This document shows, in pieces, positions 7,337 through 63,807 of a stretch of DNA of 64,000 bases. Position 1 is the first letter of the stretch. Each line of letters starts with the position of its first letter. Origin of the DNA: a virus; IMG/VR virus record IMGVR_UViG_3300045988_176782, positions 1-64,000 of that record; one strand, 5' to 3'. The notes under the pieces were generated by a model. It saw only the letters and a list, made by a program, of their open reading frames with translations, was not told the DNA's origin and did no database searches. The translations under genes were made by a program, and so were the position numbers.

Positions 7337-7340
7337 AATA

Positions 7341-37916: not shown

Positions 37917-37947
37917 AGAGGGTAGCAGAAATGCTACCCTCTTTTTT
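37917..37947. terminator. bidirectional intrinsic terminator between convergent modules
   Basis: AGAGGGTAGC-AGAAAT-GCTACCCTCT hairpin flanked by an A-run upstream and a T-run downstream. Confidence 0.75.
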
Positions 37948-40900
37948 ATGCTTCAACTAATTTTACAGTTTTTCCTTTACTTGTGATTGTCCCATCATAA
38001 TATAAGACAAATTCTGCTTGACTTGCATCTTGGCTACCAGCCATTAATACAACATCTTTAGCGTTCTTTGCGGTGCCGTTTAGGCATACATAACCTTCAC
38101 CGCTACCAATGGTTAATTTTCCCGTTAAATGTAAATTACCATTCTAATCAGTGTATAATGTTTTCTATTTACTCGTATTATACATCGCTAAACCATACTA
38201 AGAATTAGCATCAGTAGTTCCAGTGTAATGGCGGCCTAATTGGACTAAACGATTACCAGACTAATCATAGACTTCAAAACCATTTTCACTTGTAATACGA
38301 ACAGAATTATTTTGCGCGCCAATCCTTAATCCATTCCAATCTAAGGAAAGTAATTCTGTTCCCTTTTTCTGGAATAATAAGCCATTCTCATTGAATCTTA
38401 CGAAAGTTGTAGTATCAATATTTAAAGCATTATTAGTAGAGCTAACAGTAGTATCATCGCCAAAGGCATACAAGCCACTTTCATTCCATTGGAAACGAGT
38501 TTGATCACCGCTAAGAATACGAATAAATTTAGTATCAATTTGACCTGCGGTAATAAGCGAGGCGTTAATGCCTTTTGGTGTAATGCCCGTACTCCAAATT
38601 CGTTCGCCTTCTGCGTCAACAGAGTCAGAACAGAAGATGCCACCACCAATTAACTTAATCTAACCATAAACTCCATTGCGATAAGAGCTTTCATTGGTAA
38701 TAATCATACCGCCAGATTTATCTAAGGTAAGAGTGTTATTACCAAATTCAAAGTGCGCATTTGTGTTATCTAAAGTTTGTTGTAGTGTTTCTTGCGCAAT
38801 TTCGCCATTAGAAGTAAATGCCTATGCCGCAATATTATATTGAGTTTGATTTTGCTTCATTGCTTCATTTTGAGCAGAAATTGAAGAAAACAAATCTTCA
38901 AATTTTGTCTTATAATTAGCAATAGTGATTGTATCTTTAGAGGGCTAATCTAATTGATATTTTATGCCAGAAACATAACCACGCTCACGTTCAGCATCAA
39001 TTGTCCAGTCACAAACATAAACAAGTTGGCCAAGTTCAATATGTTCCATTTCGTCAGGAATATTTCCTATTTCAACTTCATAAGAATATTTAGGCTTGGA
39101 ATTATCCTTTGCAACTTGCCGCGCATCCAAATATAGCATCTCATTCGCACGAGAAACCTAATAAATAATATTATAATCAAAATCAAGAATATATTTAATT
39201 AGATTATTGTTTGTAACTTTTAAAGTAATATATGGTCGCCCTTCACGAAGCATAATTTGGTAATCTTCGTATTTAATTAAATCAGGATTATTTTCTACTT
39301 CGCCTTCAGCATTAATAGTATGCGTAGCATTACAATGAACAACTAAATTATCAGAATTATAATTAACATTTCTATAATCTAATTTAACTCGTGGATAAAC
39401 AATAGGATATTGAGTTATGTCATTAGAGGTAATTGTTAATTTTGGGTTATATTGTCGTACTGCTGTTGCGGACGCAGCATAAGATACTTGAGTGTAATTC
39501 TCATAATTAATGTCTGTAGCATTAAGTAATGCAACTGGAATAATATGAGGATTATCTTTATCCTTACTTGTATTTAAGAAAGAGAAAATGAAACCGCCAT
39601 TATTATAAAGACTTCTTACGCCTAAAAATTGTTGTAAGCCTGCAAAACGAGAGGTAATGTCGATTGCCAAAGAAGAAGCTTCCTCTTTAGATAACCATAA
39701 AATAGGTCGTAATGTTGTATTTGTGGGAGTATTATAATATAATAAAACTTTTCTAATATAACCAAAAATAGGAGTATTGTCTACAACGCCAGTATCACCT
39801 GGGTCTAATTTTAAATATAAATGCGAACCTTTAGGCAAAGTATCCGGAAGATTAAAATAGAAGAAATCAGAGTTATAACAAATTCTATATTGCTGAGTTT
39901 TTGTTAATCCAGATTCTTCCGTAATCTCTGCGCTAAATTCAGGATGCTCAAGTTCAATAACAAATTCTTCAACATTATCTAAAGCGTTAGACTGATATAA
40001 TTCTGAAAGATCAATATAAGGGTAATATTTATTTTCGTATTTTACCGCAGTTTCTGTATTAGCAATTACATAATAATTCTTCTATTCGTCCTCAAATAAT
40101 TTATCATCAAAAATATAATAAGTATTTGTTTCAGGATGACTATTCTCTCTTGAAAATACAGTATTAATGCCTTGGCCTGGATCTTCATAATCTTCTGCTT
40201 GCCAATATCCTTCACGAACCGCGGGGCCAAGTAAGCGTTCAAATTGGTAATTTAAATCTTCTTTTTCTTTCTATAATTCTTCACGAGCAAGAGTATTATT
40301 TTGTATCTATTGATTTAAACCGCATTTGGTAATGTTTGGATCTTCGTGGTCAATCTTTTCTTCAAGAAGTTTAATGGCATCTTCTTTTTCCACAATTGTT
40401 GCTTCAAAGCGCGTGCAAATTGCTGCATATTTATTCTTTGGCCAATAAGATAGTTTGAAATACACAATGGCGCCAGTTGAAAAATTATCAAAACCAGTTT
40501 GACTATTCTCTAAAGAAGTATAAACTGTGCTTGGGAAACCATCTTCATCAGTCATAATAAACCAATCATTAGGTAAAGAAGCGGCTTGCCCTGGAGAAGA
40601 TTTTACAAAATAAGGCGCCGGTATATTAGGGTCTGTGCTACCATATTTAAATAAACATTTTTTGCCTTTAGAAGGATTGTGTTCGTAGGCAGAATTGTTA
40701 TAGCATTCAATCGTAGAAGCATCAATACCAGTAACTCTAAATGTACCTTGGTTTATATTTGAAGCTGTTTGTGGAACAAGCGTAACAGAATAAGAGTTAT
40801 GCTCATCTTTTACAACGGGCTGTTTATAAGTATCATTATCGCGTAAAGTTTGATAATTGCCTAATTGCTCTTGTGCGCTTGCTAATTCCGCTTTTGCAGT

Positions 40901-42346
40901 AGCCAATTCTGCTTGAGTGTCATTTAAGGAAATAGTTAAATCATTATAATCTTGCTCTAATTTAATATACGCGCGATTGATGATATTTAACTATGTTTTA
41001 TAAGTATGTTCAATCCAATCATATTGTTCATCAGTGACTGAACCAATAGAATGAAGATAATCAAAGTTAAGAATAAATTCATCCAGTAAAGGATTACTTG
41101 GTGTATCCGCAATACTAACATAACCAGTATCAGAAATTTCAGACTGTAAAGGAGTTACATACAATTTCGTATAAATTTCACTGCTATCAATAGTGCGGCT
41201 AATAGACTGCAAATTATGTTGATAATTAATCGTATATGGGTCATCAGTTTTAATCGCGCGATTATAAAATACAACTCGTTTGCCTGTCCAAACGCGGCCA
41301 ATCTCATCCCAATAGGTGCCACGAAAATAGCCGTGGTCATCTACTTCATACTCATAAGTACAAAATACGCCAAAAGCTTCTGCAATGTCTTGGGTAATAT
41401 TATATTTATTGCTATTAGAACAATTTACATAACGCGCTTTTTCTTCAAAAGAGGTTACTTTTGTGGGTACTAATTGTTCATATAAAACTTTGTCATTTTT
41501 ATCTTTTACTGGCCAAGTAATCCAATTGGTAACATAAGCATCTTCGTAAATAGTTTCTTCATCACGAATTTGATACAACTATCTACTTGAGCCAGAATTA
41601 ATAACTAACCAATTTTTATCCTTATTATTTAATGTTTCTGCCGCGCCGCGTGCATTATAAAAACTACATCCATCTAATTGTGCGGCCATACCACCGTCAA
41701 TAAGGAAGTCACTTACATCCTAAAAATAACCGCGCCAGTCCATACGGATTTCATAACTCCAAGGAGTAAGCCAACGAATGACATTACCAGCTTCATCGCG
41801 GATATTCGGAAACACTTTATCTAGCCAATAATTAATATTGGCGACAGTATCACTATCTTTAGCAAAATCAATTTCTAATGTGTCTGCGGTTAGTTCAAGT
41901 TTATAACCAATTTTACCCAATTCGGCAAAAGCCAATCCATTACCAGTGACTTCTTTATAAACTCCAAAACTATTATCACGCCGATTTACAATTTTATCAA
42001 TAATGAAAGGAAAAACTTTTGTAATATAACCATCTTCAACAGAATCATCAGCGAATTGAATACTAACTTTTAATACTCGTGTATTTTCTGCTAATATTCC
42101 AGTTTCAATGTCTTTCCATCTTGGATTAGTAATTCGTTCATTAGGAACTTCACTAATGAAATATTTTGGAATTTTTAATGTTAAGGTCTGCGTTCCATCA
42201 TCCTTTATCTCCATCGCCGGTTCTACGACTTGACCCAAATAGTGGTCGTCATAGGACTACAAGTTTCCGATAAAATTGTCTTGTAGTCCATAGACGTCAA
42301 TCTTATATGGGCGGGATTTTTGAGATAGATTAAATTTAACGCTCAA
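37946..42346 (-). CDS. Tal-like tail tip/tail-associated protein (~1466 codons), read through many TAG codons
   Basis: RBS GGAGGG plus TTG 42346. The N-terminus (SVKFNLSQKSRPYKIDVYGL..EIKDDGTQTLTLKIP) resembles prophage tail endopeptidase/Tal proteins. Fragments 41720-42238, 40991-41578, 40307-40906, 39158-39838, 38945-39139 and 38261-38473 all share one frame and are separated by TAG. I hand-translated 37946-38263 (TAGs at 38144, 38165, 38198) down to TAA 37946-37948. Confidence 0.65.
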
Positions 42347-42368
42347 TTAAATCCCTCCAATACTCTTT

Positions 42369-44051
42369 TTAAATGTAAGTATATTTATATTTTAATGTAG
42401 CGGTTTCAACAGTAAAAGTAGAATTACCTTTTTTAAAAATTAGATAATGGAAGGAATTGATTTTTCCTGTTTTTTTATCTAATGTGTCTCCACCATCTAA
42501 CATTAAGTAAGGGGACAAAGCCATATTACTGCAATTTTCTTTGATAGATGTTAAACATTGTAAGCCGCCAAGTAGGTCATTATTATATTTATAATCTACA
42601 GTACAAACTCCAAGTTCGCTATCAAAAGTTAAAGTATAATCATAAAAAGAATTAGTTAGAAATGTTTCATCCGTGAAATCATCAGATTTACGATTCGTAT
42701 TTGGACTTTCTCTACCATTGTAATCCGCAAACATACACAACATAATAACATTAAAGAAACCAAACCAATTTACTTCAATCTAAGCATTATTTCCAACTGG
42801 TCCAGTATAAATCTTAATCTTATTATTTGTAAAAGTATTAGTCCCTTCATTCTCATCTACTGTTTCACTTTCTGGAATGTAAAGTTGAGGGGATTTTTGC
42901 TTGCCATCATAACTCATAATAGTTTGAATTGCATTGGCGGCCCAACTTAATACTTTGCCATTAACAAGTTCTTCCCTTAATCTTTCTTCTAATGATACTG
43001 CGGCAGTAATTTCTTCTTGCTCATAGTAATCGTGTGCAATTTTTATTGCTTTATTTACTTGTTCAAAAGTTTCAGGCAAAGAAAATTTAAAGGTCTAACT
43101 TAATTGTTGGTTAGCTAAATCCCCTGTTGAAGAAGCTAATACAGAATAAGTTGTACCAATAACATTATATGGAGGTTCGGCAAATAAACTGCCAGATAAT
43201 TCCGCGGCGGTATTGTATTCATCATTTATTTCATTAAAATAAATCGGCTCGCAATTAGCAGATAACTATGGTAGCAATTCACTATTAACGGCGTGTCGCA
43301 AAGAAAAGCGAAGCACGGATTCACTATTATAAGTAGAAGGATTATAATAACGAAAAGAGCTACATTGAGTAAAAATGATGTCTTTAAAAGTGCCTTTCTG
43401 ATTAATTAACTAATTTGCGCCAATACAACAGTCCCCAATACCAGACCAACTATCTCGTGCAGGAATATTACTATGATACATCATACGAAGTGCAGCCTAT
43501 TGATTATCATTTGTTTTTGCAGTAGCTAAGTCTTTTATCGTGCTATCTAAAACGTGCTAGAAAGCGAACTAAAAAGGCTTATCCTAAATTAAGGTTAGCT
43601 TACATTCACCTTTATAAATTCTTGTTTTAAGTGGAATACCAGCAATAGTATCTTCCGTAAGAAAAGGAATAAAGGTAAAATTAACTACACTTTCAATTCT
43701 AACATAACAATAGCGGTCCCACCAAGTATCCTCATAAAATTGCCCATAATATCCTGGTCGGAAGAGCCGCTTAAATTCACTAAATTGCTGTTCTGTCATA
43801 CCATCTGTTGCTAGATTGTATGTATATTTTTTTGTCTTAATTGCTGTTCCCCAATAATATTGTCCCATAACGCCATTAATGGTTGATGTTTCATCTTCAA
43901 ATTCCGGTGAACCATCAAAAGAGTACCGGTCGCTACTTGTTGTAGCGACCAGTCCAAATTCACTAATGTGATGGCCATTGAAACTAAAATCAATGAACTC
44001 TTTTTCCCAAGGCATTAGGTTTTTAGTAAGTTCTTCAACCTAAATACCCAT
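42369..44051 (-). CDS. Dit-like distal tail protein with long C-terminal extension (~560 codons), read through ~9 TAG codons
   Basis: RBS GGAGG plus ATG 44051. FNGHHISEFGL... is a siphovirus tail-component-like N-terminus. Fragments 43584-44015, 42780-43079 and 42369-42743 share a frame. I hand-translated 43386-43586 and found only TAG interruptions. The gene ends at TAA 42369-42371. Confidence 0.6.
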
Positions 44052-44057
44052 AATCCT

Positions 44058-47000
44058 TTACCTCCGAGAAACACTGCGACTTGAGGATTTCGCAGCAATA
44101 GAATACATACGGTCCATAATGTCATTGGAGATGTCTTCAATGTCATAAGAATCGTTAAGCTTCGCGACGGAGATTTGAATGGCTCCATCGGAAATGTTGA
44201 TAGAGTTAGAGTTTGAAGTTGTATAATTTTGAGAAGCAAGATTACCAGCAAAAGAATCGTAATGAGCTTTTAAGACATTTACAAAGTCAGGATTCTTTTG
44301 AGTAAAGGCAACAAGTTGTTCTAAGCCGCGAGTCTGATTAGCATTTAAGATATATTCAGGATTTTGGGGAGTGCCATGTAACATTGCTAATCCAGTTTCA
44401 GAATTCATACCACCTGTAGAATATCCACGAATTTTTTTCTATATAGAATTAATACGTGCTCTACCTACAGTAGTTTTTTTATCATCAGCTTTAGCAGACG
44501 TTCTTGTGCCAGTCCCATTTTTAGTAAGTCCCTCTGCTGCTAATTTCTTGGCATCTGCATAAGAAACTGTAACTGTTTCACCAGAAATCATCGTTACTTT
44601 ACGATTAGAACCAGAGCCAAAAGAAGACTTACTAGAAGAGCTACTTCCACCAGAAGATCCACTAGAACTTCCACTACCAGAACTATTATTAGTCTAATTC
44701 TTTGCTTTCTCATTATCCTCGCGACGTTTCTTTTCTTGAGCAATATGTTCAAAGAAACTTTGTTCCGCTAAACGAGAAGCCTCTTTCTAAGCCGCAGCAA
44801 TCTATTCATCAGAACTTTGACCATTAATGTTCTTAAGCATATAAGAATTATAAGTGTCTAAGTAATCTCTATCCCACCCCATGCGGGTTGCGGCATCAAC
44901 GGAATCATAAACATTCTTATAGCCTTCTTTCCACTTAGAAGCGTCACTTGTGTTACCCTTTAATGTTTCAAAAGCAGGTTCAGCATACTTATTAGAAAGC
45001 ATAGTAGAACGTTCGTTTTCACTATATAAGCCAATCTTGAATGCCCATTCTTCTAGCATTTTCTTTTGTTCTAAGTTTGCTTTTTCTAAGAAACTATCCG
45101 CGCCAGCACCACTTAAGAAATCAAGCATAAAGGCGTTACCCTAATCCATGATTTCATAAACCTTAGTCCATAATATGCCATTTTCTTTTTCGTAATCTAA
45201 AGTATCTTGAAGTAATTGGACTTGCTGTTCCATTAGTTCAGTTTGCTTAGTATTGGCATCCTTAATAACCTCAAGCGCATCTTCTTGCTTTTGGAAGTAT
45301 TCGTCTTTTAGCTTTTCACTAATAGTTTTTTCTAAGTTCTAAATCTCACTTGCACTACCGCCACTACGACGAAGTAGAGAAAGTTGTCGTTGTAAGGTTT
45401 CCCGTTCAGCAATGTTTTGATTAGTAGAATATTGATTCTTTTCTTTCGTGATTGCATTTTGAATTGAATCAGCGTATGCTTTGTTCGCGTCGGTAATAAG
45501 TTTATTGGATTCTTTTAAATCTTTAATGACTTTTTCCTTAACTTGAACAATTGCATCATAAATCATTTGGCTAACTTCAATTTCATTATCACGAATTTCA
45601 TCATTAACTTTTTGAATTTCTTCTGCTAAGCTTTCTAATTTTTCCTCTGTCTCTTGTACAGAATCACGAAGACCATCATAATCATCAATTGGTTCTTGCA
45701 AAGCACTAAAGAATTCTTGAACATACTCTTCATCTGTCCATTCTTTCTTAGTGTATTCGCCATTACCAACTGTTTTACCGTTTTCATCTTCGGTTTGACC
45801 TTCTTCCCAAGTGAAGCCGCGTTTAAATTGACCATTAGTTACTTTCTCAATCCAAGCAACCTAATCTTTAATGGTATAGCGTTCAGGATTATCGCCCATA
45901 TCATTAAGTTCTTGTAAAACTTCAAGGGCGCCTTTACCACCATTAGTCTCATTGCCTTCAACATATTGTAATACGCCATCTGCGCCAACTTTATAGAACT
46001 TGCTAATCCAGTTGGAAGAATCATTAATTGCGTCAGCTTGACGCTTTAATTCATCTTGTTGATAACGGTACAAATCACGTTGAGTATTGAGTTGGTCTTC
46101 AAGTAAAGCTTGACTTTCTTTTAGATTGCGGAGATAAGCGGCACCTTGGTCAAAACCTTTAGAGAGATTATTGCGTTGCGCAACAAGAGTATTGATGCGA
46201 TTCTCAAGATCAACAATTTGTCTTGAAAGGTTATACCATTCTTGTAAATCTGCAATATAAGGTTTGAGGCTGGCGTTCTTTCCACTACCGCCACCTCCAC
46301 CTCCCCCGTCGCCACCAAGCATATCGGCAGCAGATAGAGAGTTAAGTAGATTTGTCCAAATTGATTTTGCACGACGAACTGCAGCAAGAGCAGAACCAAT
46401 ACCACCAGCATAAGCATTACCTTCAACAAGAGCATTTCCACTATACATTGAAGCACGTTTATAGGCAGCATTAAGTTGAGTGCCACGAATTTTATCAACC
46501 TTTCCATCAATAATACCTTGAGTTTGAAGATGATTAAAAACGATTGCATCAGAAGGCAGATTTACAAATTCTGCGCCATCTTCGCCAAGTAGATGATATT
46601 TATTATCATAAACTGCTAACTCCGGGCCAAGTTCGCCAACAAGAGTTTTACCTGCCAAAGCAGCACCATAAATTTGACCATTTACAAGAGCTTTACCATC
46701 TACATTGCCTGTATAATATGGCAAGTCGACATTTAAACCTGCACCACTCGGTGCAAGAGGCTTCCCACCAGTTTTTTTAACACTAACTGTGCCAGTGAAA
46801 CTGGTATTTACACTTTTAGGAATTTCAGCAATGATTTTTTTAACTCGTTCTACAACTGAAATTATATTCCCTACTATACCACTAAAAGAAGTCTCATGAC
46901 TTGAAGGAACAGATTCAACAGAACTAGTAATATCTTTTGCAGTTTTATCTACATTTTCATCTTTTGCAGAAAAAGTGGTTTCTACTGTAGCGTTTTCTGC

Positions 47001-54366: not shown

Positions 54367-56427
54367 ACTTTCACGCGTTGCCTCTACCATAGTAGCGATC
54401 ATCGCGGTTGTATTTTCAAAACTACTACCAACGTTTGCTGCGCCGGAAGCAGTTTTAGACATGGCTTCAATTAAGTCTTGCGTATCAGACGCAGTTTTCG
54501 CAGCTACATTACTGTAAACATCCGTAACATGAGCTGCGTCAGTCATATCCATGTTGAACGCACGAATAGCTACAGTCATACCATCTGCAGCATCACTGTA
54601 AGAAATACCAGCAATACGAGCCATCTTTAATGTCTCGGTTGTTGTTGCCATTACATCCGCAGTTCCCAAGCCTTGTTGGTAATAAAGTTGTGTTACTTCA
54701 TAAACACCTTGGGTAGTTACACCATATTGTTTTGCGATGGCCATATAATCATTAATTTGGCCCCATAAATCCTCAACACTAAAATCAGTAACTACCGCAA
54801 TGTTAGTCATTGCTTTATCAAGATTTTGAATATCATTATAAGCTTCGCGGATACCCTATCTAATATAACTTACAATTTCTCTGGCACCCATCCAACGAGC
54901 AATAGACATTTGTAAATTACGCTTAAACATTTCTGCTTCATTTTGAGCTTGCTATGCCGCAGCGTTAAGGTCACCTTGTGCACGTAAATTATCTTCTGTT
55001 CCAGTACGATAATCTCTAATATTAGAATCAATACTCGTTGCGCCGCCAGTTTTTCTGACGCGAAGAGCATCTTGGTATCCTTGCTATTCTTGAGTTAAAC
55101 TATTTAATTTATCTTGTAATTCTTGTATTGTTTGAGCTTTTAGAATAGTAGAAAGATTCTCAAATTCTGTAGCAAGACTTCGTAAAGAAGGAATTAAAGT
55201 AGAAGTTATGCTAGTAATATCATTTTGGATATTAGCATACTCTTGTTCCTAAGTATTTAACTTCCCCTAATTTGCGCGGATATAAGTGTCTGCTTCATTT
55301 AATTGAGTTTGCGCAGTAGTGTAACGGTCAACGGATTGTTGAACCATAAATTTATTTGCGTAATTACGGCCCCAAGCGCTAACTTTTTGAACTTTCTCTA
55401 CACCTTCAACACCAAGGCCAATTCCATCATTTTCTAATTGAATGGCTTTAGCAATCGCGGCCATAATACTGTCTTTTAAACCAGCAACTGGGCCACTAAT
55501 TACAGATTGAATTTCGGCATTATCAATCTTAAATGCCTGCATCATCTATGTTACTACGTCTCTACCGACATCAGTTAGAGTATTGGAAGATTTATTGTAG
55601 TAATCAGTATTACTTGTAATTTCTTTTTGAATAGAATTAAGAACATTTCTTGCTGTATAATTCGCTGTCAAACCACTAACAGTTGTCGCTTGCGCTATAC
55701 TTGAAGCAAAGCGACTTCTATTATAAGTTTGACTGGTTACACCCATTTCAGTCTAAGCAGAAGTTCGTTTTGTCTATGCTGCAGCCATTCCTTGACGCAA
55801 TGGCGCTAATTTAGCCATAACATCAGATGCTTTTTGCTCTAAACTAGCAAGCTATTTTTCTGCATCACTAATACCAGCTCTAAATGCAGCAGCATTAGCA
55901 CTTAAAGATTTATCTGCATTAAAACCTTTAAGTTTAGTGGCAGTAGCATCTGCCAAAATAGAGCGGCCTGTTCTTCCTTTACCATCGTCATAAGTTTCTA
56001 AAAACTCTCGGCTATTTTTCTTTGGCTCTGCGCCGCCTTCAACAGCACGCAAATCCTTTTTAATGGCAGAAATTTTATTAGCAAAAGTATTTAAGTCTCG
56101 CTTTTCTGCATCGGTTAAAATAAAATTACTTAATCCCGCGTTTTGGACTTGTCGTGCGGAATTTTGAACGGTATCATAAAAAGATTCAACCTAACGAGTA
56201 GCTTTTTTTAATTGGTTGCTATCCACCATTGGTCCTGCTAATGTGTCAGCAAATTCTTGCGCTTTAGCTTTTAATTGGTCAAGCGTTTTAGACATACTGG
56301 TATACAAAGCAGTGCCAGGATTCATCTAAGCTAATTGAGATTCAAATTGTTGAACAATTTGATCCATTTGCTTTTTATTTGCAACGAAATCAACAGCTAC
56401 TGTATAACTTCTTGGTCCTGTGGCCAT
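54367..56427 (-). CDS. tape measure protein, exon 1 (687 codons, 11 in-frame TAG by hand translation)
   Basis: RBS AAAGGAG plus ATG 56427. Fragments 55852-56052, 55546-55746, 55267-55545 and 54361-54810 share a frame. The TP901-family TMP core is present (AKTASDTQDLIEAMSKTASGAANVGSSFENTTAMIATM). Confidence 0.7.
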
Positions 56428-56461
56428 ATTTCTTCTCAACTCCTTTTACCCAAAAAAATAA

Positions 56462-56481: not shown

Positions 56482-56484
56482 ATA

Positions 56485-57300
56485 TTATATACCAGAGATG
56501 TCTTCATCAAGATATTGTATTTCGCATACAACATCATCTCTTCCTTCCTTTGTCTCTGGCTACGCTATAACTCTAAAAGTAGACACCATAGGGTCTGCTC
56601 TTTCTCCCATTCTCAAATTAATATTACTCAATATACGAATTTTAGGCATACGCAAATAACCTGTGCGTAGTAAGCCCTCATTCTCATCCTTCATTTGAAA
56701 AGTGGCTTCAAGAGTATATAAATTCGTAAATCTCTCACGATTCATAGAATAAGTTATTATATCTTTTTTATATTCAAAATAATAATCGCACATAATGGTT
56801 TGGTCGGCAAATTCTTTTCCAAAATCAATCTTTAAATTGTCAATTAAAATAGGAAAAATGCGGCCTTGAATATTGTTGAAATCATAAGTAAAGAAAAAGT
56901 TTTTATATTCTATATCATTCAAAATAGGATGATACTTTAAATACCCTTTTCCATTCTCATCCAACATAATAACTTCATTATATGGTAAAATATTGTCGTC
57001 TACTTTATTTAACATATTCGCGCCAAGAAGTAGGTTAAAACTTATTGTATTTATCGTTCCATTAGAAAACGCAAATGTTGTTTCTTGACGGTCCTCCCAA
57101 ATAACGCGAGGTTCATTATGCCAACCGCCACGAGCCATAATAGGGCGGACATTTTCAGAAAGAAGCGCAATTTGTAAGTTATCAAAATAAATGACTGGTT
57201 CGCCTGCTTCAAGTAATCTTTCTCCGAAGGCGACTTCATTTTTTGTTTTTATACAAACGCGCTCAAGATTTTTTATACCAAGTTCTTCAAGAGTGTTCAT
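56485..57300 (-). CDS. tail tube-like protein, paralogue of the major tail protein (246 aa to TAG, 271 aa if TAG is read through)
   Basis: RBS GGAGGT plus ATG 57300. It shares LGIK.. and A.GGW.N....W.. blocks with the intron-split gene upstream. TAG at 56560 is followed by 24 more sense codons to TAA 56485-56487. Confidence 0.55.
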
Positions 57301-57328
57301 TATTTACCTCCGAAGATAAAAAAATAAA

Positions 57329-57356
57329 GGGAGCAGGCGGATTAACGCCCGCTCCC
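57329..57356 (-). terminator. intrinsic terminator after the major tail protein gene
   Basis: On the - strand, GGGAGCGGGCG-TTAATC-CGCCTGCTCCC followed by TTTATTTTTTT. Confidence 0.7.
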
Positions 57357-57396
57357 GCGGTTAGTTTCATTTTTAGTGTGCGTAAAGCACTTACCA

Positions 57397-57463
57397 TCAA
57401 TATTTTACTAGAGAGAACATGTTTCCATCATTATCGCGGAGCACATTCAAAGTCATACTAAAT
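57397..57463 (-). CDS. major tail (tube) protein, exon 6 of 6
   Basis: Encodes (T)FSMTLNVLRDNDGNMFSLVKY, ending at TGA 57397-57399, about 40 nt before the terminator. Confidence 0.55.
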
Positions 57464-57602
57464 CATTTTTCTTGCGTTGTATCGCTACTACAACTCTTAT
57501 AATTTCTTATAAGATGAGACTATATCATTCATCAATTTCTTGATTTAACTGCTCTTTCGAGTGCGCTTACACCCTACTTCCTTACGGAATAGTCGTTGAA
57601 CC

Positions 57603-58322
57603 TTAATCCAAAAATTTCCATTTATATCCAAAAGTGGTGATTCGTTTTCCTTCACATACCGCACGAATATTACGACCAGCCGCCGTAGGTTTGCCTAAAG
57701 CTCTTGCCGCCTCATTGGCTGAAGAAAAAGTGGCTATTAAATTTCCTTCTAAATCATATTGTCCAGTTTTTCGTCCGTGTGTTTTCTTGGCATTAACTGG
57801 AATAACACAATTATCTTCTTTATATTTATAAATTGAGTCTTTATAATGCGTAATCTCCCCACGACAATTCTGCGAAACAGCTTGATAGGGTATACCCATT
57901 TTTCTTGCGCATTCTTTTATAGATGCGAAACTTTCAATAAAAATCCCTTCTAAATTATAACGAGAAACTTCACGTTTTAAGCTACAAGTATTAGCTATAT
58001 ATTCTACTGCTCCTCCTGGTTTAATATTATAACCATATTGAGGATTTTGCGTTTTATACAATTGAATATAATATTTTTCTTTATCATTTAAATCTTCATA
58101 AGGGACTTCTTCTAAAATTTCTACAATAAAATTTTCATAACCATACTTTTCAAAAGCTCGCATAAGTGCCGTACAATTTCGATACCCTTTTCCGTCTTTT
58201 CCTGCACGAATTTTTAAAGACTCAATTGTTTTACCGACATATTTTTTATTAGATGGAGAAGTATAGCAATAAATAAAGCCATGATTTTCTTTTGGACGCT
58301 GTTTTAATAATTCTGTATTCAT
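57603..58322 (-). CDS. GIY-YIG homing endonuclease (intron-encoded)
   Basis: GFIYCYTS..KYVGKT..KIRAG motifs plus repeated C-terminal DNA-binding modules (..GYKWKFLD). It contains no TAG. Confidence 0.85.
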   Translation of the reverse strand: MNTELLKQRPKENHGFIYCYTSPSNKKYVGKTIESLKIRAGKDGKGYRNCTALMRAFEKYGYENFIVEILEEVPYEDLNDKEKYYIQLYKTQNPQYGYNIKPGGAVEYIANTCSLKREVSRYNLEGIFIESFASIKECARKMGIPYQAVSQNCRGEITHYKDSIYKYKEDNCVIPVNAKKTHGRKTGQYDLEGNLIATFSSANEAARALGKPTAAGRNIRAVCEGKRITTFGYKWKFLD

Positions 58323-58343
58323 ATTTTCCTTTCTTGGATTCTT

Positions 58344-58452
58344 GGCTGCTGATTGCCCAATCCTATTTTATGTTACTACAAATTTTTATATTTGTCAAAT
58401 TATTACTAATTTGTTGAGTTAAATAGGCTCTAAGGGGATTCCAGCAATTAAG
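58344..58452 (-). repeat. intron-internal repeat, copy A (intron 5)
   Basis: About 109 nt, near-identical to 60667-60774. On the - strand it includes TTGACA-N17-TAACAT and a palindrome ACAAAT..ATTTGT. Confidence 0.7.
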
Positions 58453-58498
58453 CAGTTTTTACTTCCACATTTAAGCCGTGACTTTTCGGATTAGGTTC

Positions 58499-58631
58499 GT
58501 GGAAGGATCGCCTTCTGCCTGCATGGTTAAGGTTACTTCGCTCAACATCTTAGCCTTGTTGATGATGAATTGGAAAGCTTCATCCTTACCAGTGGCTTCA
58601 GAACGAATTAGAGCATCGCCTACAACCTTGT
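58499..58631 (-). CDS. major tail (tube) protein, exon 5 of 6
   Basis: Encodes (Y)KVVGDALIRSEATGKDEAFQFIINKAKMLSEVTLTMQAEGDPS(T). Confidence 0.55.
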
Positions 58632-59749
58632 CATTTTTATTATCGTTTCCTAAACTTCTTATATTTTCATATAAGATTAGACTATATCTTCACACAAATT
58701 ATTTGAGTGTTCGGCACTAACCTCAAGGAATTTAGAGGTATTTAGTCGTTGAGCCTTGAGCAAGTTTTCCATTTAAATCCATAAGCCGTATTGGTATCTT
58801 TATCTAATACTTTACGAATTAAACTTGTTTCCTTTCCGAGACTTTTCGCCGCGGCAGTAATGGAAGGGAAAACTTGGATAATCTTCTTTGTTATTGGGTC
58901 AATTTGTTGAATTTGCTTCGCAGTGTTATTATATTTTTTAACCATTAAAATTTCTGTGCATTCCCAACGATAACCATAAGCACTTTTTAATTCATTACGA
59001 CAACAACGACGAATTGCAGAACGTTCACCGTTCACTGCTCTCGCCGCTTCTGCTAAAGAAGGAAAAGTGTTTATCAATATCCCGTCTAGAGAAAATTGCT
59101 TAATCTTTTTTTCACTATTATCTACAATTCTTTCATGAATAGGGAATCTATTTAATTTTTCATAGCTCCAACAAAAATTATATTGGGTATATACTTTATT
59201 TTCTAAACAACCTTGAAAAGTTTGAGGAACTGTATTAAAAGCTTTTGCAACTTCTGATATATTTTCCCACTCTCTTATAAAAGAACCGTTTTGACTTGAA
59301 TATTGATATACTTTTTTACGTTCTTTAGACCAGCCTTTTTGACCACCATCGGTTAAATTATAACCATTTGGCGCTAAAGTATTAAATAATTGAATATACT
59401 TTTTTTCAGCCTAGTCTAATTGGTTTTTTGGGACTTCTGCTAAAATTTCAACAGTAAAATTAGAAAAGCCATATTTTTGAATTGCTTTATAAAATAAATC
59501 ACACCCTTTATAGCATTTTCCATTATGGCCCGCTCTTTCTTGCAGAGAACGAGTTGTTTGCCCAACATAAGAAGAACCAGATGGAGATGTATATTTATAA
59601 ATAAATCCATAACCACTCTTTGGTCGTTTTTCCATTTTAATACTCCTTGGTTGCTGATTGCCGGCCATTTCAGGCTACGGTTTCCAGCAATTCACCGAAT
59701 TGATTTGCATTTTTTAACTCCCCGCGTGGAGCCCTACAATGTTGAGGAA
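58632..59749 (-). mobile_element. group I intron 4 of the major tail protein gene, with GIY-YIG HEG
   Basis: P1 pairs exon GGAACCU with GGGCUCC (one mismatch). The intron ends ..CGATAATAAAAATG. Core motifs are present. An alternative junction 9/11 nt away is also in frame. Confidence 0.6.
58742..59635 (-). CDS. GIY-YIG homing endonuclease (intron-encoded) with one in-frame TAG
   Basis: RBS AAGGAG plus ATG 59635. GFIYKYTS..SYVGQT..QERAG motifs. ORFs 59411..59668 and 58742..59077 are in the same frame. I hand-translated the whole gap and the only interruption is TAG 59411-59413. Confidence 0.75.
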
Positions 59750-60220
59750 AGGTTCCAGGGAATGTAGAAGGACTAATAACGATTTCAGAAGCGGTGCCTT
59801 CTTCAACTACTTCCTCTTCCCAGAAGAAACGAATCTTAGTGATTTCGGTGGCGGCATCAGCAAAAGGCTTAGTGCCAGTCTTTAAAGTAACAGTGAATTT
59901 CGCGGGATCGCTGCCATCATTAGTTACAGTATCAACTTCGCCAGAGCCACGTAGGCCGTGAGTCATGTCAACCCACTTAAACTTGAAGCCAGCCTTTACA
60001 ACATCCTCACCAGGGAAGTTGTTCTTACCGCCCATAGTCTTCCCATCACCCATTGGGAAGGTAAAGGTTTCACCAACCTTAAAGTTGCGTTCAGCGTTCT
60101 TATAAATAGTAACAGTGTGTTCGTCAGTGGACTTATTATACATCGCACCACCCATGATAATGCGTAGTTCTTCCCAAGATACTACAGCATCTTCTAGGGT
60201 TACATTGATGTCCTTACCAT
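59750..60220 (-). CDS. major tail (tube) protein, exon 4 of 6
   Basis: Carries most of ORF 59670..60155 (..DINVTLEDAVVSWEELRIIMGG...FTVTLKTGTKPF..). Confidence 0.6.
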
Positions 60221-60468
<248 letters not shown>

Positions 60469-60493
60469 AGTCCCAAGTGACCAATTTAGGATT
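60469..60493 (-). CDS. major tail (tube) protein, exon 3 of 6 (25-nt micro-exon)
   Basis: AATCCTAAATTGGTCACTTGGGACT encodes NPKLVTWD plus 1 nt and lies between two intron cores. A 13-nt version that starts after ..AAATTG is also in frame. Confidence 0.55.
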
Positions 60494-60813
60494 CATTGTG
60501 TTCCACATAGTTCGCTAATCTATGCGCGGATTTCTCCTGCTTATGATTTCTCATAATGTTCAGACTATATCTTCATCTTTAGATGGGTCTAAAGAGTCCC
60601 CTGTTTCGTGAGGCTTCTCACTACAATTAGTCGTTGAACCTTTCTCTTTTGGCCTTAAGAGATTTGGCTGCTGATTATCCAATCTTGATTTATGTTACTA
60701 CAAATTTTTACATTTGTCAAATTATTACTAATTTGTTGAGTTAATCAAGCTCTAAGGACGTTCCAGCAATTAAGAGGATTTTTCCGTTGAGGCAAACCTA
60801 AGTATGTATGTCA
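60494..60813 (-). mobile_element. ORF-less group I intron 2 of the major tail protein gene (320 nt)
   Basis: 8-bp P1 pairs exon GUUGGGGU with GCCUCAAC. Family core motifs are present. It shares a ~108-nt near-identical segment with intron 5. Confidence 0.7.
60667..60774 (-). repeat. intron-internal repeat, copy B (intron 2)
   Basis: See copy A. Only a handful of substitutions are visible by eye. Confidence 0.7.
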
Positions 60814-60960
60814 ACCCCAACCGCCCTGAGCTGAAACATTTTCAGCAGTAGTTTCTACAGTAGAAACCTTTAGGGTATTTAAATAAAGTACAATATCGCC
60901 GGCTTTGATGTCTCCTTCGTCGGCTAGAGCTTGGAAATAAACGTTAGCTACTTCCTTAAT
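60814..60960 (-). CDS. major tail (tube) protein, exon 2 of 6
   Basis: Encodes IKEVANVYFQALADEGDIKAGDIVLYLNTLKVSTVETTAENVSAQGGWG. It aligns with IKNLERV...ARGGWHN of the paralogue. Confidence 0.6.
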
Positions 60961-61783
60961 CAATTATGTTACGATTGAACCTGTTATCAATCTCTTATAG
61001 TTTCCTATAAGTTCAGACTATATCTTCATCCGATTTCTCGGAGTCTTGCACAGGAGAAGCAGGATTTTCTTCTCGCTTAGTCGTTGAGCTTTCTAAAAAG
61101 TATTTCCAAACATATCCTCCCGCAGTTTTTCGCTTGCCACGAACACATTGCGTAATAGAACTACGACAAGTTCCAGTCTATTCACTTGCCTCACGTTGAG
61201 AATCATAAACTTTTAACAAATGGCCCTCTAAATCATATTGTGCTACTTTTATTTTAGACGCTTCCGCACCTAAAGGCTGAACCTTTTCAACCCATTCTTT
61301 TACACTTTCTTCACGATGTTTCCCAGAAAAACTATGTTTAGTATTTTCAGAATAAGTAGTCCATTCTAAATTATTAACACAATTATTAGATTTATTAAAA
61401 TCTTTATGATTTACAACAGGATAATTATTTGGATTACTAATAAAAGTAGAAGCTATAATTCTATGAGCACGATATAAATGTCGAGATAAAGATACTAATA
61501 AATAACCATCTTTGTCTTTCCATTGTGAAACAAGTTCTTTTGTGCTTTTATCACGAATTTGCCCATTCTCACAAGCTTCATAATTATTATCAACGGGAAC
61601 TGTTTTCCACATTATTTATTGTCTCCTTTTTAGCTTAGTTGCTGATAGCCCATTGTTGCATCTTATTATTTTTTAAACATTCACGCTTGCATTTGCACGC
61701 TTCGTTGTAGTAAATAAGCTTTAGGGCGTTCCAGCAATTCACAAGAATTGTCAGTAAGAATTGCTCCTTACAGTGGCATTTCT
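60961..61783 (-). mobile_element. group I intron 1 of the major tail protein gene, with HNH HEG
   Basis: The 3' end ..CGTAACATAATTG matches the family. P1 is short (exon UGGU with GCCA). An alternative 5' junction 12 nt downstream is also in frame. Confidence 0.6.
61013..61612 (-). CDS. HNH homing endonuclease (intron-encoded) with one in-frame TAG
   Basis: RBS AAAGGAG plus ATG 61612. HNH_3-type motif VVNHKDFNKSNNCVNNLEW. TAG 61178-61180 is followed by a typical C-terminal DNA-binding module (..CVRGKRKTAGGYVWKY). The frame then runs into the intron core to TGA 61013. Confidence 0.7.
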
Positions 61784-61813
61784 ACCATAACGTTCAAAGA
61801 TGTTAATGGCCAT
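61784..61813 (-). CDS. major tail (tube) protein, exon 1 of 6 (10 codons)
   Basis: RBS AAGGAGG plus ATG 61813, encoding MAINIFERYG. The junction YG|IKEV mirrors LGIKNL in the paralogue. Confidence 0.5.
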
Positions 61814-61827
61814 ATTAAACATCCTCC

Positions 61828-62592
61828 TTATTTAAAAGTCATTGTTTTTATCCAATGAGAGAGTTTGTCTTTTCCTATTTTTGCTCCCGCCATTGCGGCG
61901 CGAGTATTTATATTAAACTCTTCGTGCCAACCCATACGCTTAAGTTGGTCTTGAAAAGCATAATAACTCAATTTCATAACAGATTGAAGCGTATATCCTG
62001 AAGTTCCAATTGGAAGAGAAGCTACCAAATCAGAAAAGTTAATTGTACTTTTATCTGATTTCTTTTGCTTTTCTTTTAGTTCTTTTCGTTTTTTTCTACC
62101 CTCAAGCATTTGGAGCTTTAGCTCTCTTACTTTTTGGGAGTCTGTATCTAAAAACTCTATACGCTCTTCTGAATAATCTTCCATCGCACAAGCTAAACCA
62201 ATATATGTTTGGAAATCATAGAAGTTATCTTTTGTTAAAATGCGTTTTTCAGATGGGTCGCCTAAAATAATACTTGAAGTTTCCAAAGAAATAATAATAG
62301 AATCTTGAGTAAATAAATAAAACGCTTCTTCTAACATTTTCTTTGTTTCTGACTCCATAGAACAAACAAGTAACAAATATTCAAAATCACTTAAATTTTT
62401 TAATACATCATTAACTTCTTTTTCTTCTACAAAAGGTTTCTCAATTAATAATAGAGAAATATCTTTATAAAATTTAGACAAACCAACAGAAATTATATCT
62501 TCTAATATAGGAGAATATATTAAACAAATATCTTTAAAAATTAACGGCTTACCACACAATAAACGCAATTTATCATCATCAATTAAAGTCAT
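61828..62592 (-). CDS. hypothetical structural-module protein
   Basis: 254-aa ORF with no TAG, ending at TAA. Its stop overlaps the RBS of the major tail protein gene. Confidence 0.5.
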   Translation of the reverse strand: MTLIDDDKLRLLCGKPLIFKDICLIYSPILEDIISVGLSKFYKDISLLLIEKPFVEEKEVNDVLKNLSDFEYLLLVCSMESETKKMLEEAFYLFTQDSIIISLETSSIILGDPSEKRILTKDNFYDFQTYIGLACAMEDYSEERIEFLDTDSQKVRELKLQMLEGRKKRKELKEKQKKSDKSTINFSDLVASLPIGTSGYTLQSVMKLSYYAFQDQLKRMGWHEEFNINTRAAMAGAKIGKDKLSHWIKTMTFK

Positions 62593-63070
62593 TAATCTAA
62601 TAATACATCGTATAGCCGCCCATCTAAGGAGAAAGGGTCAATGGAACACACTATACAAACTGTAAATTACCCAAACCACTAAGTTTCGCTTGATTAAATA
62701 GACTATCAATTTCCTACATTAATAAATAAGGCCGCAAATTACCTTCATCAACAATCCATTCTGTATAAGGACAAACAACCTCAAAGCGCACAGTAGAATA
62801 TTTGAAATCTGGATTTTGCGGATTGATAATATATTTATCAAATATAATTGTTATATAGGAGCGCTCTATATTATCAATTTCAGGATACTTTGGAACAATA
62901 ATGAAATTCTCATTCAACAAAGATAACCCATCTACATCCGGAAGTGTAGGGTCAAACGGATTAGAATTTTGATATTTAAGTAGACGACAAATGCGCTAAT
63001 TAGTCGTTAACTTATTAATAATCTTATATAAGTTTTCGCCCATTACGGCGAATCTGCGTTGTGTCGCCAT
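62579..63070 (-). CDS. hypothetical structural-module protein (163 codons) read through 5 in-frame TAG codons
   Basis: RBS AGGAGG 8 nt before ATG 63070. I hand-translated it through TAGs at 62996, 62714, 62650, 62623 and 62597 down to TGA 62579-62581, which overlaps the next gene's start. Confidence 0.55.
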
Positions 63071-63072
63071 AA

Positions 63073-63807
63073 TTAAGCCTCCTACCATAAAGCATAAATA
63101 TCAATTGATTTAGTGTAAGATTGACCATTATATTCTGTAGAAAGAATAACTTTGCCAAGTTTATTACGTTCATTTGCTTTGACAATACATTTATTGCCTT
63201 GATTCTGTATAGAAGCAAGAACTGTATTATCAATAACAAAATCTGTTTCAACTGCACCAATATCTGGCATAACTAATTCATAGGAAGCAGAGCGTCCCAT
63301 CCGAATAAAATTGTCGCCGTTGATATAACCAATCGGCGCGGCACCACCAATGATAACTTTAAGCGTAAGCATTAAGTTTTCATAAGTAAGCAATAATTCA
63401 GTTTCGCCCGCTTCAGTGGCAATTAATTCACCATTTTCATTGTATGATATTTTTTCACTTGGAACTAAAGTTGCTTTAAGGTCTTTTTGAATAACGCCAT
63501 TTTTTAATAAAGTATAAATAGGATTAATAATTTCTCCTACTTCTACTGATAATTGTAATGGAGCATTAATACTCCAAACTTGCAATTTATCAATATTAGC
63601 AATTTGTTCTTGTACGCTATCTCGCAATTCATTTACTTTACTTTCAGTAAAAGATAAGTAAATTGTGCCTGGAACAGATACACGGTCATATTCAATTAGT
63701 TCCCAAGCTTCATCATATAAAATGATTTCTGTTGATTTTTCAATTGGTTGATAAGGCATCAATACTTCCATAAACTTATTTGGCTGGGGCGTAATAAGCT
63801 CGTTCCA
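63073..63807 (-). CDS. 3' exon of a structural protein with Ig-like (Big_2-like) repeats; 5' exon lies beyond the window
   Basis: The ORF 63082..63810 frame begins right at an intron 3' end. Beta-rich Ig-like segments are present (..LQLSVEVGEII.., ..KCIVKANERNKLGKVILSTEY..). TAG 63082 is followed by 2 codons and TAA 63073. Confidence 0.5.

Follow-up and report, generated by a model that had tools for sequence, protein, structure and literature searches.

The 64-kb stretch of viral DNA analysed here (the window) carries a replication and nucleotide-metabolism module on its plus strand (1-36.4 kb) and a tail and virion module on its minus strand (Table 1). When TAA and TGA alone were treated as stops, the minus strand yielded four long ORFs. 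The minus-strand genes between 37946 and 63822 (12 genes) contain 81 in-frame TAG in 7,823 codons and not a single TAA or TGA interruption, as compared with 10 TAG in 11,363 codons for 40 genes on the plus strand (Fisher p = 8e-22).

Table 1. Features of the window and of the suppressor tRNA locus in related contigs.
Feature	Position	Strand	Size	TAG	Remarks
Early-module gene, function not assigned	527..1036	+	169 aa	2	
Sole candidate for a TAG terminator	6848..7351	+			TAG at 7334-7336, then 4 codons, then TGA
Free-standing GIY-YIG homing endonuclease	32787..33794	+	335 aa (public call)	4	replication module; PF01541
RuvC-like resolvase	36802..37530	+	242 aa	3	
Tal-like tail protein	37946..42214	-	1,422 aa	14	stop TAA; PF06605 Prophage_tail, 34.9 bits
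Tail gene at position expected for Dit	42369..44051	-	560 aa	9	
Tape measure exon 2	44058..54026	-	3,322 codons + stop	37	
Tape measure intron	54027..54363	-	337 nt		group I, no ORF; Rfam Intron_gpI, 65.5 bits, above gathering score
Tape measure exon 1	54364..56427	-	688 codons	11	several PHROG tape measure families; PF10145 on public gene call
Tail tube protein	56485..57300	-	271 aa	1	YomU_Tube family; phrog_2729; PF27173 on public gene call
Tube paralogue (second tube-like gene)	57397..61813	-	292 aa spliced	0	6 exons: 61813-61784, 60960-60820, 60505-60469, 60220-59750, 58631-58499, 57463-57397; group I introns of 823, 314, 248, 1,118 and 1,035 nt
GIY-YIG homing endonuclease	57603..58322	-		0	in tube paralogue intron 5; phrog_314, E = 8e-23
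GIY-YIG homing endonuclease	58742..59710	-		2 (1 if start 59635)	in tube paralogue intron 4; phrog_314, E = 2e-25
HNH homing endonuclease	61013..61612	-		1	in tube paralogue intron 1; phrog_59, E = 2e-39
YomV-like virion protein	61828..62592	-	254 aa	0	phrog_4051, PF27211
YomW-like virion protein	62579..63088	-	163-169 aa	5	phrog_6123, PF27256
Late gene	63073..63771	-	228-232 aa	1	TAG three codons ahead of TAA
TAA/TGA-only ORF	37946-42346	-	1,467 codons	15	code 11: 16 segments, 8 of at least 60 aa
TAA/TGA-only ORF	42369-44057	-	563 codons	9	code 11: 10 segments, 3 of at least 60 aa
TAA/TGA-only ORF	44058-54029	-	3,324 codons	37	code 11: 38 segments, 19 of at least 60 aa
TAA/TGA-only ORF	54361-56445	-	695 codons	11	code 11: 12 segments, 4 of at least 60 aa
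Long-variable-arm suppressor allele	L038:1766-1856		91 nt		ARAGORN anticodon cta; Rfam tRNA, 57 bits
Intron-split suppressor allele	L023:10490-10833				insert matches Intron_gpI, 45.9 bits, E = 1e-10

In the tail module TAG serves as a sense codon, and only read-through yields the genes there. The longest stretch free of TAA and TGA spans 3,323 codons, whereas 200 shuffles of the same region averaged 135 and never exceeded 218, which excludes a chance origin. The tape measure, Tal-like, tube and YomW-like genes hold between 1 and 48 TAG each without TAA or TGA, and the density is highest in the window in the YomW-like gene. TAG is never required as a terminator in the window; all 52 gene ends are TAA (40) or TGA (12). 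An earlier note on this DNA had proposed the sense reading of TAG, and it is borne out by the ORFs, the shuffles, the family matches and the conserved TAGs. The same note had allowed one gene, as 6848..7336, to need a TAG terminator, and a TGA follows in frame shortly after. Its counts of 20, 6 and 3 fragments agree with the code-11 segmentation, and each gap that it had translated by hand falls within a TAA/TGA-free ORF.

If the TAGs were real stops, the region would consist of degraded pseudogenes or of numerous short genes, or would be an artefact of assembly, and under code 11 there are indeed short ORFs only. However, a run of this length is beyond chance, and the read-through products matched PF10145 (tape measure), PF06605 (Tal-like) and YomU_Tube, with matches spanning the TAG positions. 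The same TAGs are also seen again in independently assembled genomes from many samples (139 of the 161 TAG sites of this genome are TAG in at least one relative), and human gut metagenomes contain this lineage in abundance. Together these four observations effectively refute the reading of TAG as a stop, whose probability we put close to nil.

The Tal-like product agrees with an identical call in the public collection. Its neighbour, which the earlier note took for Dit, gave no match in family searches (PHROG, Pfam); relatives have it at 94-97% identity and conserve its TAGs.

Not every interruption is due to TAG. The earlier note had each chain of fragments end at a true TAA or TGA gene end and counted a separate gene of 3306 aa. 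Both points were corrected. The "genes" of 688 and 3306 aa are a single tape measure gene of 4,010 aa with 48 TAG. A group I intron of 337 nt interrupts this gene, and the first three intron bases form the seeming TAA "stop" of the upstream chain (54361-54363). The preceding exon ends in U and the intron in G. The splice junction falls within one PF10145 stretch, and the spliced product aligns without gaps across the junction with the tape measure of PMBT24.

The fragmentation at 57.4-61.8 kb comes mainly not from TAG but from five group I introns in an 879-nt coding sequence and from three homing endonuclease genes inside them. The interrupted gene is a paralogue of the tube protein gene, and the alignment of the two is unbroken across three junctions. 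Its exons were mapped by means of less interrupted alleles in relatives; intron content varies among strains that are about 92% identical. The spliced ORF is clean, and like the spliced tape measure it is gap-free against uninterrupted homologues. All five introns end in G and four follow U, so that with the tape measure intron the counts are six of six and five of six. Rfam group I scores of the five are 78.5, 71.9, 38.9, 38.4 and 29.4 bits; three of the six window introns (78.5, 71.9 and 65.5) lie above the RF00028 gathering score and three below it. The six insertions are predicted to be self-splicing group I introns. Several group I introns in one phage gene have a precedent in orf142 of Staphylococcus phage Twort, which has three; in such genes, as here, some introns carry HNH or GIY-YIG genes and essential genes are interrupted, whereas the window phage has five in one gene and a further one in the tape measure.

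Recoding is not limited to the tail module, where the earlier note had placed it (37946-63807). The GIY-YIG gene and the RuvC-like gene of the plus strand, as well as the gene at 527-1036, carry TAG and lie beyond those coordinates. In-frame TAG occurs in the genes for tail proteins, portal, terminase and resolvase and in a number of homing endonuclease genes; the products of all these can be made only under TAG suppression. The 1-36.4 kb module is nearly TAG-free and is thus translatable under the standard code of the host.

The amino acid inserted at TAG is most likely Gln, as judged from codon comparison with relatives 92-97% identical to the window genome. At aligned TAG sites (161 in all) where a relative has another codon, the counterpart is CAA in 46 cases and CAG in 24 (70 of 119), followed by Lys (14), Glu (6) and Ser (6). 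The log-likelihood is -248.9 for Gln and -507.4 for Lys, the next best, a gap of about 258 units; R, E, N and H come after. The guess of Gln in the earlier note is supported by this comparison. In an alignment with a standard-code homologue, which the note had suggested, one of the two TAGs in the stretch alignable to the PMBT24 tape measure stands opposite Gln. For crAss-like phages, the question of peptides with Gln at TAG positions has been approached by proteomics (PMC9523058).

The note had also called for a scan for a tRNA with a CUA anticodon. None was found by tRNA search of the 64-kb window, and an RNA with this anticodon was found in 11 of the 11 relative contigs examined. It lies at one fixed locus, about 25 kb upstream of the equivalent of window base 1, adjoining a ROOL RNA. 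Judging from these 92-97% identical relatives, the window genome probably has a suppressor tRNA of its own. The locus holds three interchangeable alleles. One is a long-variable-arm tRNA of 91 nt; in the second, a group I intron separates bases 35 and 36 of the anticodon of this tRNA; the third is a GC-rich RNA that folds as a non-canonical cloverleaf. The third, identical across eight contigs, was undetected by ARAGORN and by the Rfam tRNA model. Its minimum-energy and centroid folds are both cloverleaves with the anticodon loop CUCUAAA, although the tRNA alleles reach modest fold z-scores (-1.3 to -2.0). A variant (L051) keeps 25 of 25 base pairs, with five compensatory double changes and no disruptive one. 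In the GC-rich allele, the acceptor stem has seven Watson-Crick pairs and a mismatched 1:72. Its D stem (5 bp) closes a CGGC loop, the anticodon stem has 6 bp and the T stem 4 bp, the variable region of 21 nt includes a 3-bp hairpin, and position 73 is G.

The shape of these RNAs raises the possibility that TAG is sense and encodes serine, since a long variable arm and G73 are elements for seryl-tRNA synthetase. In E. coli, tRNAs shaped like allo-tRNAs place Ser or Ala at UAG. (8/4) allo-tRNAs, reported together with tRNASec-like tRNAs from Clostridia and phages (Mukai et al. 2017, PMC5389517), have a 12-bp acceptor branch (8-bp acceptor plus 4-bp T stem) and G73 or U73, and are predicted Ser acceptors. 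The GC-rich allele resembles them in its long D stem, tetraloop, 6-bp anticodon stem, long variable arm, 4-bp T stem and G73, and by the criteria of a long variable arm and G73 (PMC5389517) Ser is predicted for the GC-rich and long-variable-arm alleles alike. This prediction conflicts with the codon evidence for Gln, in which Ser is rare and is absent from the leading likelihoods (Q, K, R, E, N, H). The eighth acceptor "pair" of the GC-rich allele is mismatched (U.U or A.C), its T loop (AUCGGCA) lacks the TTC motif, and unlike (8/4) allo-tRNAs it shares its locus with an ordinary-looking tRNA(CUA) of sister genomes. All suppressor alleles combine G73 with a weak or mismatched 1:72, as do the ordinary tRNA-Gln genes of phAss-1, whereas the tRNA-Ser of the phage itself has C1-G72. 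The long-variable-arm allele has a D arm of the tRNA-Gln type, one nucleotide off that of phAss-1 tRNA-Gln(CUG). For the GC-rich allele, a serine identity of the (8/4) allo-tRNA type is not supported by the codon comparisons, indirect evidence that favours Gln, and serine as the meaning of TAG is very improbable.

TAG might also be read as sense with no suppressor from the phage, by a host that decodes it as Gln, by a host amber suppressor or through disabling of RF1 only. The lack of a tRNA in the window fits such a reading, and a suppressor tRNA was detected in just 40% of TAG-recoded phages (Borges et al., 10.1101/2021.08.26.457843). Against it stands the CUA-anticodon RNA at the locus in every relative contig examined. 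A host reading TAG as Gln would not be expected to leave replication genes with a more than tenfold avoidance of TAG, and near-cognate read-through at the rates familiar from bacteria is far too weak for 48 TAGs. This reading is very improbable.

The preferred reading, to which we give a probability of nearly nine in ten, is that the window represents 64 kb of a circularly permuted siphovirus genome of about 167 kb from the human gut that uses code 15, with TAG read as glutamine. The contigs, 167,214 and 167,278 bp long, have differing break points. The suppressor tRNA would be charged with Gln by the host, would compete against release factor 1 and might thereby act as a timing switch that allows late-protein synthesis. 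We infer early and late timing from gene function alone. With 48 TAGs to be read in the tape measure gene, suppression would have to be highly efficient; by calculation about 8% of ribosomes complete it at 95% read-through per codon and about 62% at 99%. No release factor, anti-RF1 or synthetase was found among the called genes with listed Pfam names.

TAG recoding of this sort is already known from code-15 phages, and the interest lies in the variants of the suppressor tRNA. phAss-1 and the proposed Phassvirus are gut phages with TAG as Gln (Babkin et al. 2023, PMC10607447). Like the window phage, this group has large siphovirus-type genomes in the human gut, in-frame TAG in terminase, portal, tape measure and fibre genes, a tape measure of more than 3,000 aa, and replication genes related to Enterocloster and SPbeta-like phages. 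The 91-nt tRNA(CUA) of phAss-1, with a long variable arm, is 71% identical to the corresponding allele of the relatives. The window phage differs in genome size (167 kb versus 136 kb), in tRNA count (about 10-12 versus 36), in having one suppressor locus with alternative alleles versus three canonical genes, and in its intron-dense, SPbeta-like structural module (Yom/Yon families). Phassvirus members share 80-86% nucleotide identity among themselves. Megablast of the 24-kb late region gave two trivial matches below 50 bp and none at the nucleotide level to phAss-1. On this lack of nucleotide similarity and a DNA polymerase identity of 35.6% (amino acids), membership in Phassvirus was rejected; the window phage is a distant relative.

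The clades described by Borges et al. (crAss-like, Lak, Garnet, Agate, Topaz and others; 10.1101/2021.08.26.457843) likewise have a replication module compatible with the standard code, recoded codons concentrated in structural and late genes, and recoded homing endonuclease genes, and a translational timing switch was proposed for them. In contrast to those clades, the most abundant virion proteins here, namely the major-capsid-like YonB, the tube paralogue and YomV, are without any TAG, and the suppressor is of a kind likely to have escaped the tRNA search used for those clades.

With its counterparts in SPbeta, Enterocloster phages and phAss-1 the DNA polymerase shares about 35% identity, and the tail-tip proteins have no detectable match among GenBank phages. 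SPbeta-like phages are the nearest cultured relatives. SPbeta/SPBc2 and the Staphylococcus SPbeta-like phages differ in using the standard code, but they share the YorL-type polymerase, a very long tape measure and virion genes of the YomW, YomV, YomU and YonB families in conserved order.

Counting only TAA and TGA as stops, we found four very long minus-strand open frames within 37946-63822 of the window, whose G+C content is 33.5%. The longest TAA/TGA-free run, 3,323 codons, exceeds that of 200 shuffled versions of the region (mean 135, maximum 218 codons), so the chains of TAG-interrupted fragments described in the earlier note are real; its fragment counts agree with the pieces into which the standard code (code 11) cuts these frames (see the table). 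All 52 genes of the window end at TAA (40) or TGA (12), in line with the statement in the same note that, with one possible exception, no gene needs TAG as its terminator. The sole candidate, a TAG at 7334-7336 (+), closes an early gene and is backed four codons later by TGA (to 7351), and the product is nearly identical with TAG as stop or read through. TAG is a sense codon in this phage and is never required as a stop, and the core interpretation made from the sequence alone is confirmed. With TAG read through, the products match tape measure, Tal-like, tube, YomW-like and YomV-like families, and the collection's own gene calls already read it through (1,422-, 3,306- and 688-aa products). 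For the tail region, code 11 produces dozens of meaningless fragments; translated with TAG as Gln (code 15) after removal of six introns, the same region has a normal tail module with a 4,010-aa tape measure. The 560-aa protein previously taken as Dit (42369-44051) had no family match in Pfam or PHROGs, nor did a 232-aa gene.

Open frames, genes and intron-related features of the window
Feature	Coordinates	Strand	Codons	In-frame TAG	Remarks
Open frame	44058-54029	minus	3,324	37	code 11: 38 pieces, 19 of at least 60 aa
Open frame	37946-42346	minus	1,467	15	code 11: 16 pieces, 8 of at least 60 aa
Open frame	42369-44057	minus	563	9	code 11: 10 pieces, 3 of at least 60 aa
Open frame	54361-56445	minus	695	11	code 11: 12 pieces, 4 of at least 60 aa
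Tape measure	54361-56427 + 44058-54026	minus			several PHROG tape-measure families, PF10145
Tal-like protein	37946-42214	minus			PF06605
Tail tube protein	56485-57300	minus			phrog_2729, YomU_Tube
YomW-like protein	62579-63088	minus			family match
YomV-like protein	61828-62592	minus			family match
Free-standing GIY-YIG gene	32787-33794	plus		4	
RuvC-like resolvase	36802-37530	plus		3	
169-aa gene	527-1036	plus		2	
Tape measure intron	54363-54027	minus			337 nt, no ORF, ends in G
Tube paralogue exons	61813-61784, 60960-60820, 60505-60469, 60220-59750, 58631-58499, 57463-57397	minus			
HNH homing endonuclease gene	61013-61612	minus			within tube-paralogue intron
GIY-YIG homing endonuclease gene	58742-59710	minus			within tube-paralogue intron
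GIY-YIG homing endonuclease gene	57603-58322	minus			within tube-paralogue intron

The minus strand carries 81 TAGs in 7,823 codons (12 genes) and the plus strand 10 in 11,363 codons (40 genes), the latter confined to four genes (Fisher p = 8e-22). Recoding of the tail module, as first proposed, stands, and it extends beyond that module: the plus-strand GIY-YIG, RuvC-like and 169-aa genes also contain TAG. Beyond the window, the phage's own genome has 5 TAGs in the portal gene and 2 in a terminase fragment, and a 769-aa early-region gene of a closely related contig has 10. Sequences analysed in addition to the window bear L numbers; L003 and L037 belong to its own genome and L023, L024 and L038, for example, to relatives. 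No TAG was found in YonB (major-capsid-like) and three neighbours (L003:4312-7354, just beyond the window's right end), nor in the YomV-like gene and a paralogue of the tube gene. The replication and nucleotide-metabolism module lies on the plus strand at 1-36.4 kb and includes genes for ligase, PhoH, topoisomerase II, DnaB-like helicase, primase, RecJ, DNA polymerase III alpha-type and NrdD. Judged by gene function, TAG looks avoided both by replication genes and by those virion genes whose expression is highest.

The residue encoded by TAG was assessed by codon-by-codon alignment to relatives of every TAA/TGA-free ORF of the own genome (window, L003 and L037). The standard-code Enterocloster phage PMBT24 is homologous in the tape measure core only, its terminase and portal giving no match to this phage, and the inference is therefore based on close relatives. 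At 139 of 161 own TAG sites at least one relative also has TAG. When the other side differs, the codon opposite TAG is a Gln codon in 70 cases (CAA 46, CAG 24), ahead of Lys (14), Glu (6), Ser (6), Asn (5) and Trp (5). Mutation alone is insufficient to give the CAA pattern, because CAA is two mutations away from TAG. With candidate residues scored by substitution frequencies from the same alignments, the log-likelihood at TAG sites was -248.9 for Gln and -507.4 for Lys, the next best; a smaller first comparison gave the same picture. The earlier suggestion of Gln is thus favoured both by codon counts and by likelihood, and TAG probably encodes Gln, on comparative evidence that is short of proof.

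ARAGORN found no tRNA, and hence no CUA anticodon, in the window. The remainder of the genome was tiled with close relatives and own genome sequence, which gave two small tRNA clusters, none with a CUA anticodon. Tiling of the ~168-kb genome of the closest IMG/VR relative also gave no CUA anticodon by ARAGORN and no extra tRNA by Rfam, and as a positive control ARAGORN detected all three CUA tRNAs of phAss-1, a published TAG-to-Gln gut phage. A lineage without any suppressor was considered, and this was dropped once a CUA tRNA turned up in a 90%-identical relative; alignment of the locus then gave two more forms. A search for a CUA tRNA, which the earlier note proposed for the rest of the genome, was negative in the window and positive at this locus in relatives. 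The locus is flanked by a 99-aa gene and a ROOL RNA, at a position equivalent to ~25 kb before window base 1. The first form is a 91-nt CUA tRNA with a long variable arm in a 173.5-kb relative (L038:1766-1856). In the second (IMG/VR contig 170892) a 253-nt insert separates bases 35 and 36 of the anticodon in the same tRNA; a U precedes the insert, its last base is G, and its score against a group I intron model is 45.9 bits (E = 1e-10). The third is a 90-nt GC-rich element that replaces the tRNA, identical in IMG/VR contig 173030 and seven others, with a variant in a ninth contig, L051.

The minimum-energy fold of the GC-rich element is identical to its centroid fold and is a cloverleaf. The acceptor stem has 7 pairs and a mismatched 1:72 position, with G73 and an encoded CCA; the D stem is 5 bp with a tetraloop, the anticodon stem 6 bp with the loop CUCUAAA, the variable arm long and the T stem 4 bp. 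Ten of the 15 positions that differ in the L051 variant make up five compensatory pairs, and no pair is broken. Neither ARAGORN nor the Rfam tRNA and tRNA-Sec models (E up to 0.1) reported the element. A CUA tRNA form is present in 11 of 11 relative contigs at the locus, the GC-rich form in nine; since all 11 have one, the window's own genome probably carries one of the three alleles.

What is new here is this polymorphic, partly non-canonical suppressor tRNA locus of the relatives. We put at about one in two the probability of the reading that it mostly holds a GC-rich CUA tRNA of tRNASec/allo-tRNA shape, which is missed by ARAGORN and the Rfam tRNA model and apparently delivers Gln, and in sister genomes a long-variable-arm suppressor derived from tRNA-Gln and sometimes split in its anticodon by a group I intron. 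Shape criteria and codon evidence are in tension over the amino acid. Published criteria (PMC5389517) take a long variable arm with G73 as a sign of serine identity, and the GC-rich element is shaped like the (8/4) allo-tRNAs that the same study describes in Clostridia and phages. The codons opposite TAG say Gln. In all suppressor alleles the 1:72 pair is weak or mismatched and base 73 is G, a combination shared with the ordinary phAss-1 tRNA-Gln genes; in the tRNA-Ser of the phage itself this pair is C1-G72. Between the long-variable-arm allele and phAss-1 tRNA-Gln(CUG) the D arm differs at a single base. The GlnRS of E. coli uses a broken 1:72 pair, G73 and U35 as identity elements. The 1:72/G73 pattern and the D arm are a lead that points towards Gln for the suppressor tRNA.

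The suppressor tRNA would be charged with Gln and, in a host with the standard code, may turn on translation of late genes, a role proposed for other recoded phages. Because the tape measure contains 48 TAGs, suppression would have to be ~95-99% efficient per codon. Among the Pfam names listed for called genes there was no release factor or anti-RF1 function. Of the TAG-recoded phages studied by Borges et al., only 40% had a detected suppressor tRNA, and the authors suspected non-canonical ones. The RNAs described here, if functional, would explain this apparent lack in concrete terms and would mean that a non-canonical tRNA body serves for glutamine. The lineage is a testable example, in which a single locus has alternative suppressor genes and standard detection misses two of its three forms.

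Other features surround the locus. The ROOL RNA (~300-310 bits; L024:10872-11442, L038:2083-2651, L023:11122-11696; ~24 kb before the window start) lies directly downstream, and two of three relatives have an abiF RNA motif (41-45 bits) separating it from the suppressor tRNA, the three forming one gene-free block of ~1.1 kb. Close to the locus, also downstream, are a YqeY (GatB C-terminal-like) gene and a 435-451-aa gene (L040:1686-3507, L038:3582-5354, L027:617-1960), whose 435-aa form in L038 matches Pfam RNA_ligase; a kinase (AAA_33/KTI12) and metallophosphatase pair is found elsewhere in the genome. These genes resemble tRNA repair or handling enzymes and might be related to the odd tRNAs.

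The second new feature is the exceptional intron load of the tail genes. Rfam called three group I introns above the gathering score and three weaker ones on the minus strand. Its boundaries were off by ~35-45 nt at several ends, and homology-based junctions were used instead. What had been read as two tape measure genes is one, split by a 337-nt group I intron. Exon 1 ends at U 54364 and exon 2 begins at 54026; the spliced product, joining ...ATRESP to ENIGSALK..., aligns gap-free to the PMBT24 tape measure, and the junction falls within a single PF10145 stretch. On these two grounds we regard the tape measure as a single gene of 4,010 codons with 48 TAGs, for which the usual length-per-residue rule, if it applies, would give a tail of several hundred nm.

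A second tube-like gene (879 nt, 57397-61813, minus strand) lies between the YomV-like and tube genes. Its six exons, mapped with less interrupted alleles of relatives, splice into a clean ORF of 292 aa, a paralogue of the tube protein that aligns with it continuously over three junctions. The spliced product had no Pfam match; precomputed matches of the collection name YomU_Tube on the relatives' alleles. The five group I introns (823, 314, 248, 1,118 and 1,035 nt; 3,538 nt in total) make this phage gene unusually intron-dense; of the endonuclease genes borne by three of them, two contain TAGs. Relatives' alleles have fewer introns, partly at other sites (one or two in ~92%-identical relatives), so intron content varies between strains; their tape measure is split elsewhere, by an endonuclease-bearing insert.

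At least seven homing-endonuclease-like genes were seen in the window. A GIY-YIG ORF (21476-22294) apparently separates the DHH part of RecJ (20074-21348) from its OB part (22349-22876), and a LAGLIDADG-like ORF (25690-26535) apparently divides DNA polymerase III alpha (22932-25493 and 26578-28071), all on the plus strand; no Rfam intron was called at these splits (20074-28071). A second LAGLIDADG-like ORF (35320-36414, plus strand) follows the dUTPase gene. In the own genome a DUF723-type endonuclease gene splits the large terminase gene (L003:561-2352), and the head/packaging region of a close relative has two further group I introns of 96 and 87 bits (L019:7050-7298 and 16844-17161).

Two human-gut contigs from ENA (167,214 and 167,278 bp) encode NrdD and the YomV-like protein with sequences identical to those of the window, and their differing break points fit a complete circular or circularly permuted genome of ~167 kb. 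Relatives of 92-97% nucleotide identity are abundant in gut metagenomes. Among GenBank phages there was no nucleotide-level relative (late-region megablast gave two trivial matches only) and no tblastn match to the Tal-like protein; the DNA polymerase is ~35% identical to the enzymes of SPbeta, Enterocloster phages and phAss-1. TAG-to-Gln recoding of late genes is already known. The phAss-1 group, with tape measures of ~3,150 aa (PMC10607447), is an example, and NCBI taxonomy places phAss-1 in a 'Caudoviricetes code 15 clade'. The present phage is a distant additional lineage, and one very common in human gut metagenomes.

The tRNA arrays of these phages differ in composition among strains, and at one shared position ARAGORN gives the tRNA-Leu anticodon as TAA in one close relative and CAA in another (L025:5729-5814 versus L026:6482-6569). 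Some tRNA-like genes carry a 43-52-nt insert in the anticodon loop (L008:534-649, the same as L024:17813-17928; L007:3704-3820; L011:8059-8178, minus strand), two of them scoring 49-52 bits against the Rfam tRNA model. Having no CTA in loop context, they were rejected as suppressors. The inserts are alike in two unrelated tRNA bodies, with a TCTTG..AAAGA hairpin followed by GCnATTnTT, and are too short for group I introns. A radical SAM peptide maturase and CXXX-repeat target proteins are encoded among the phage tRNA genes (L040:10001-13087 and equivalents), and a second radical SAM gene set lies beside the tail fibre genes (L037:20948 onward).
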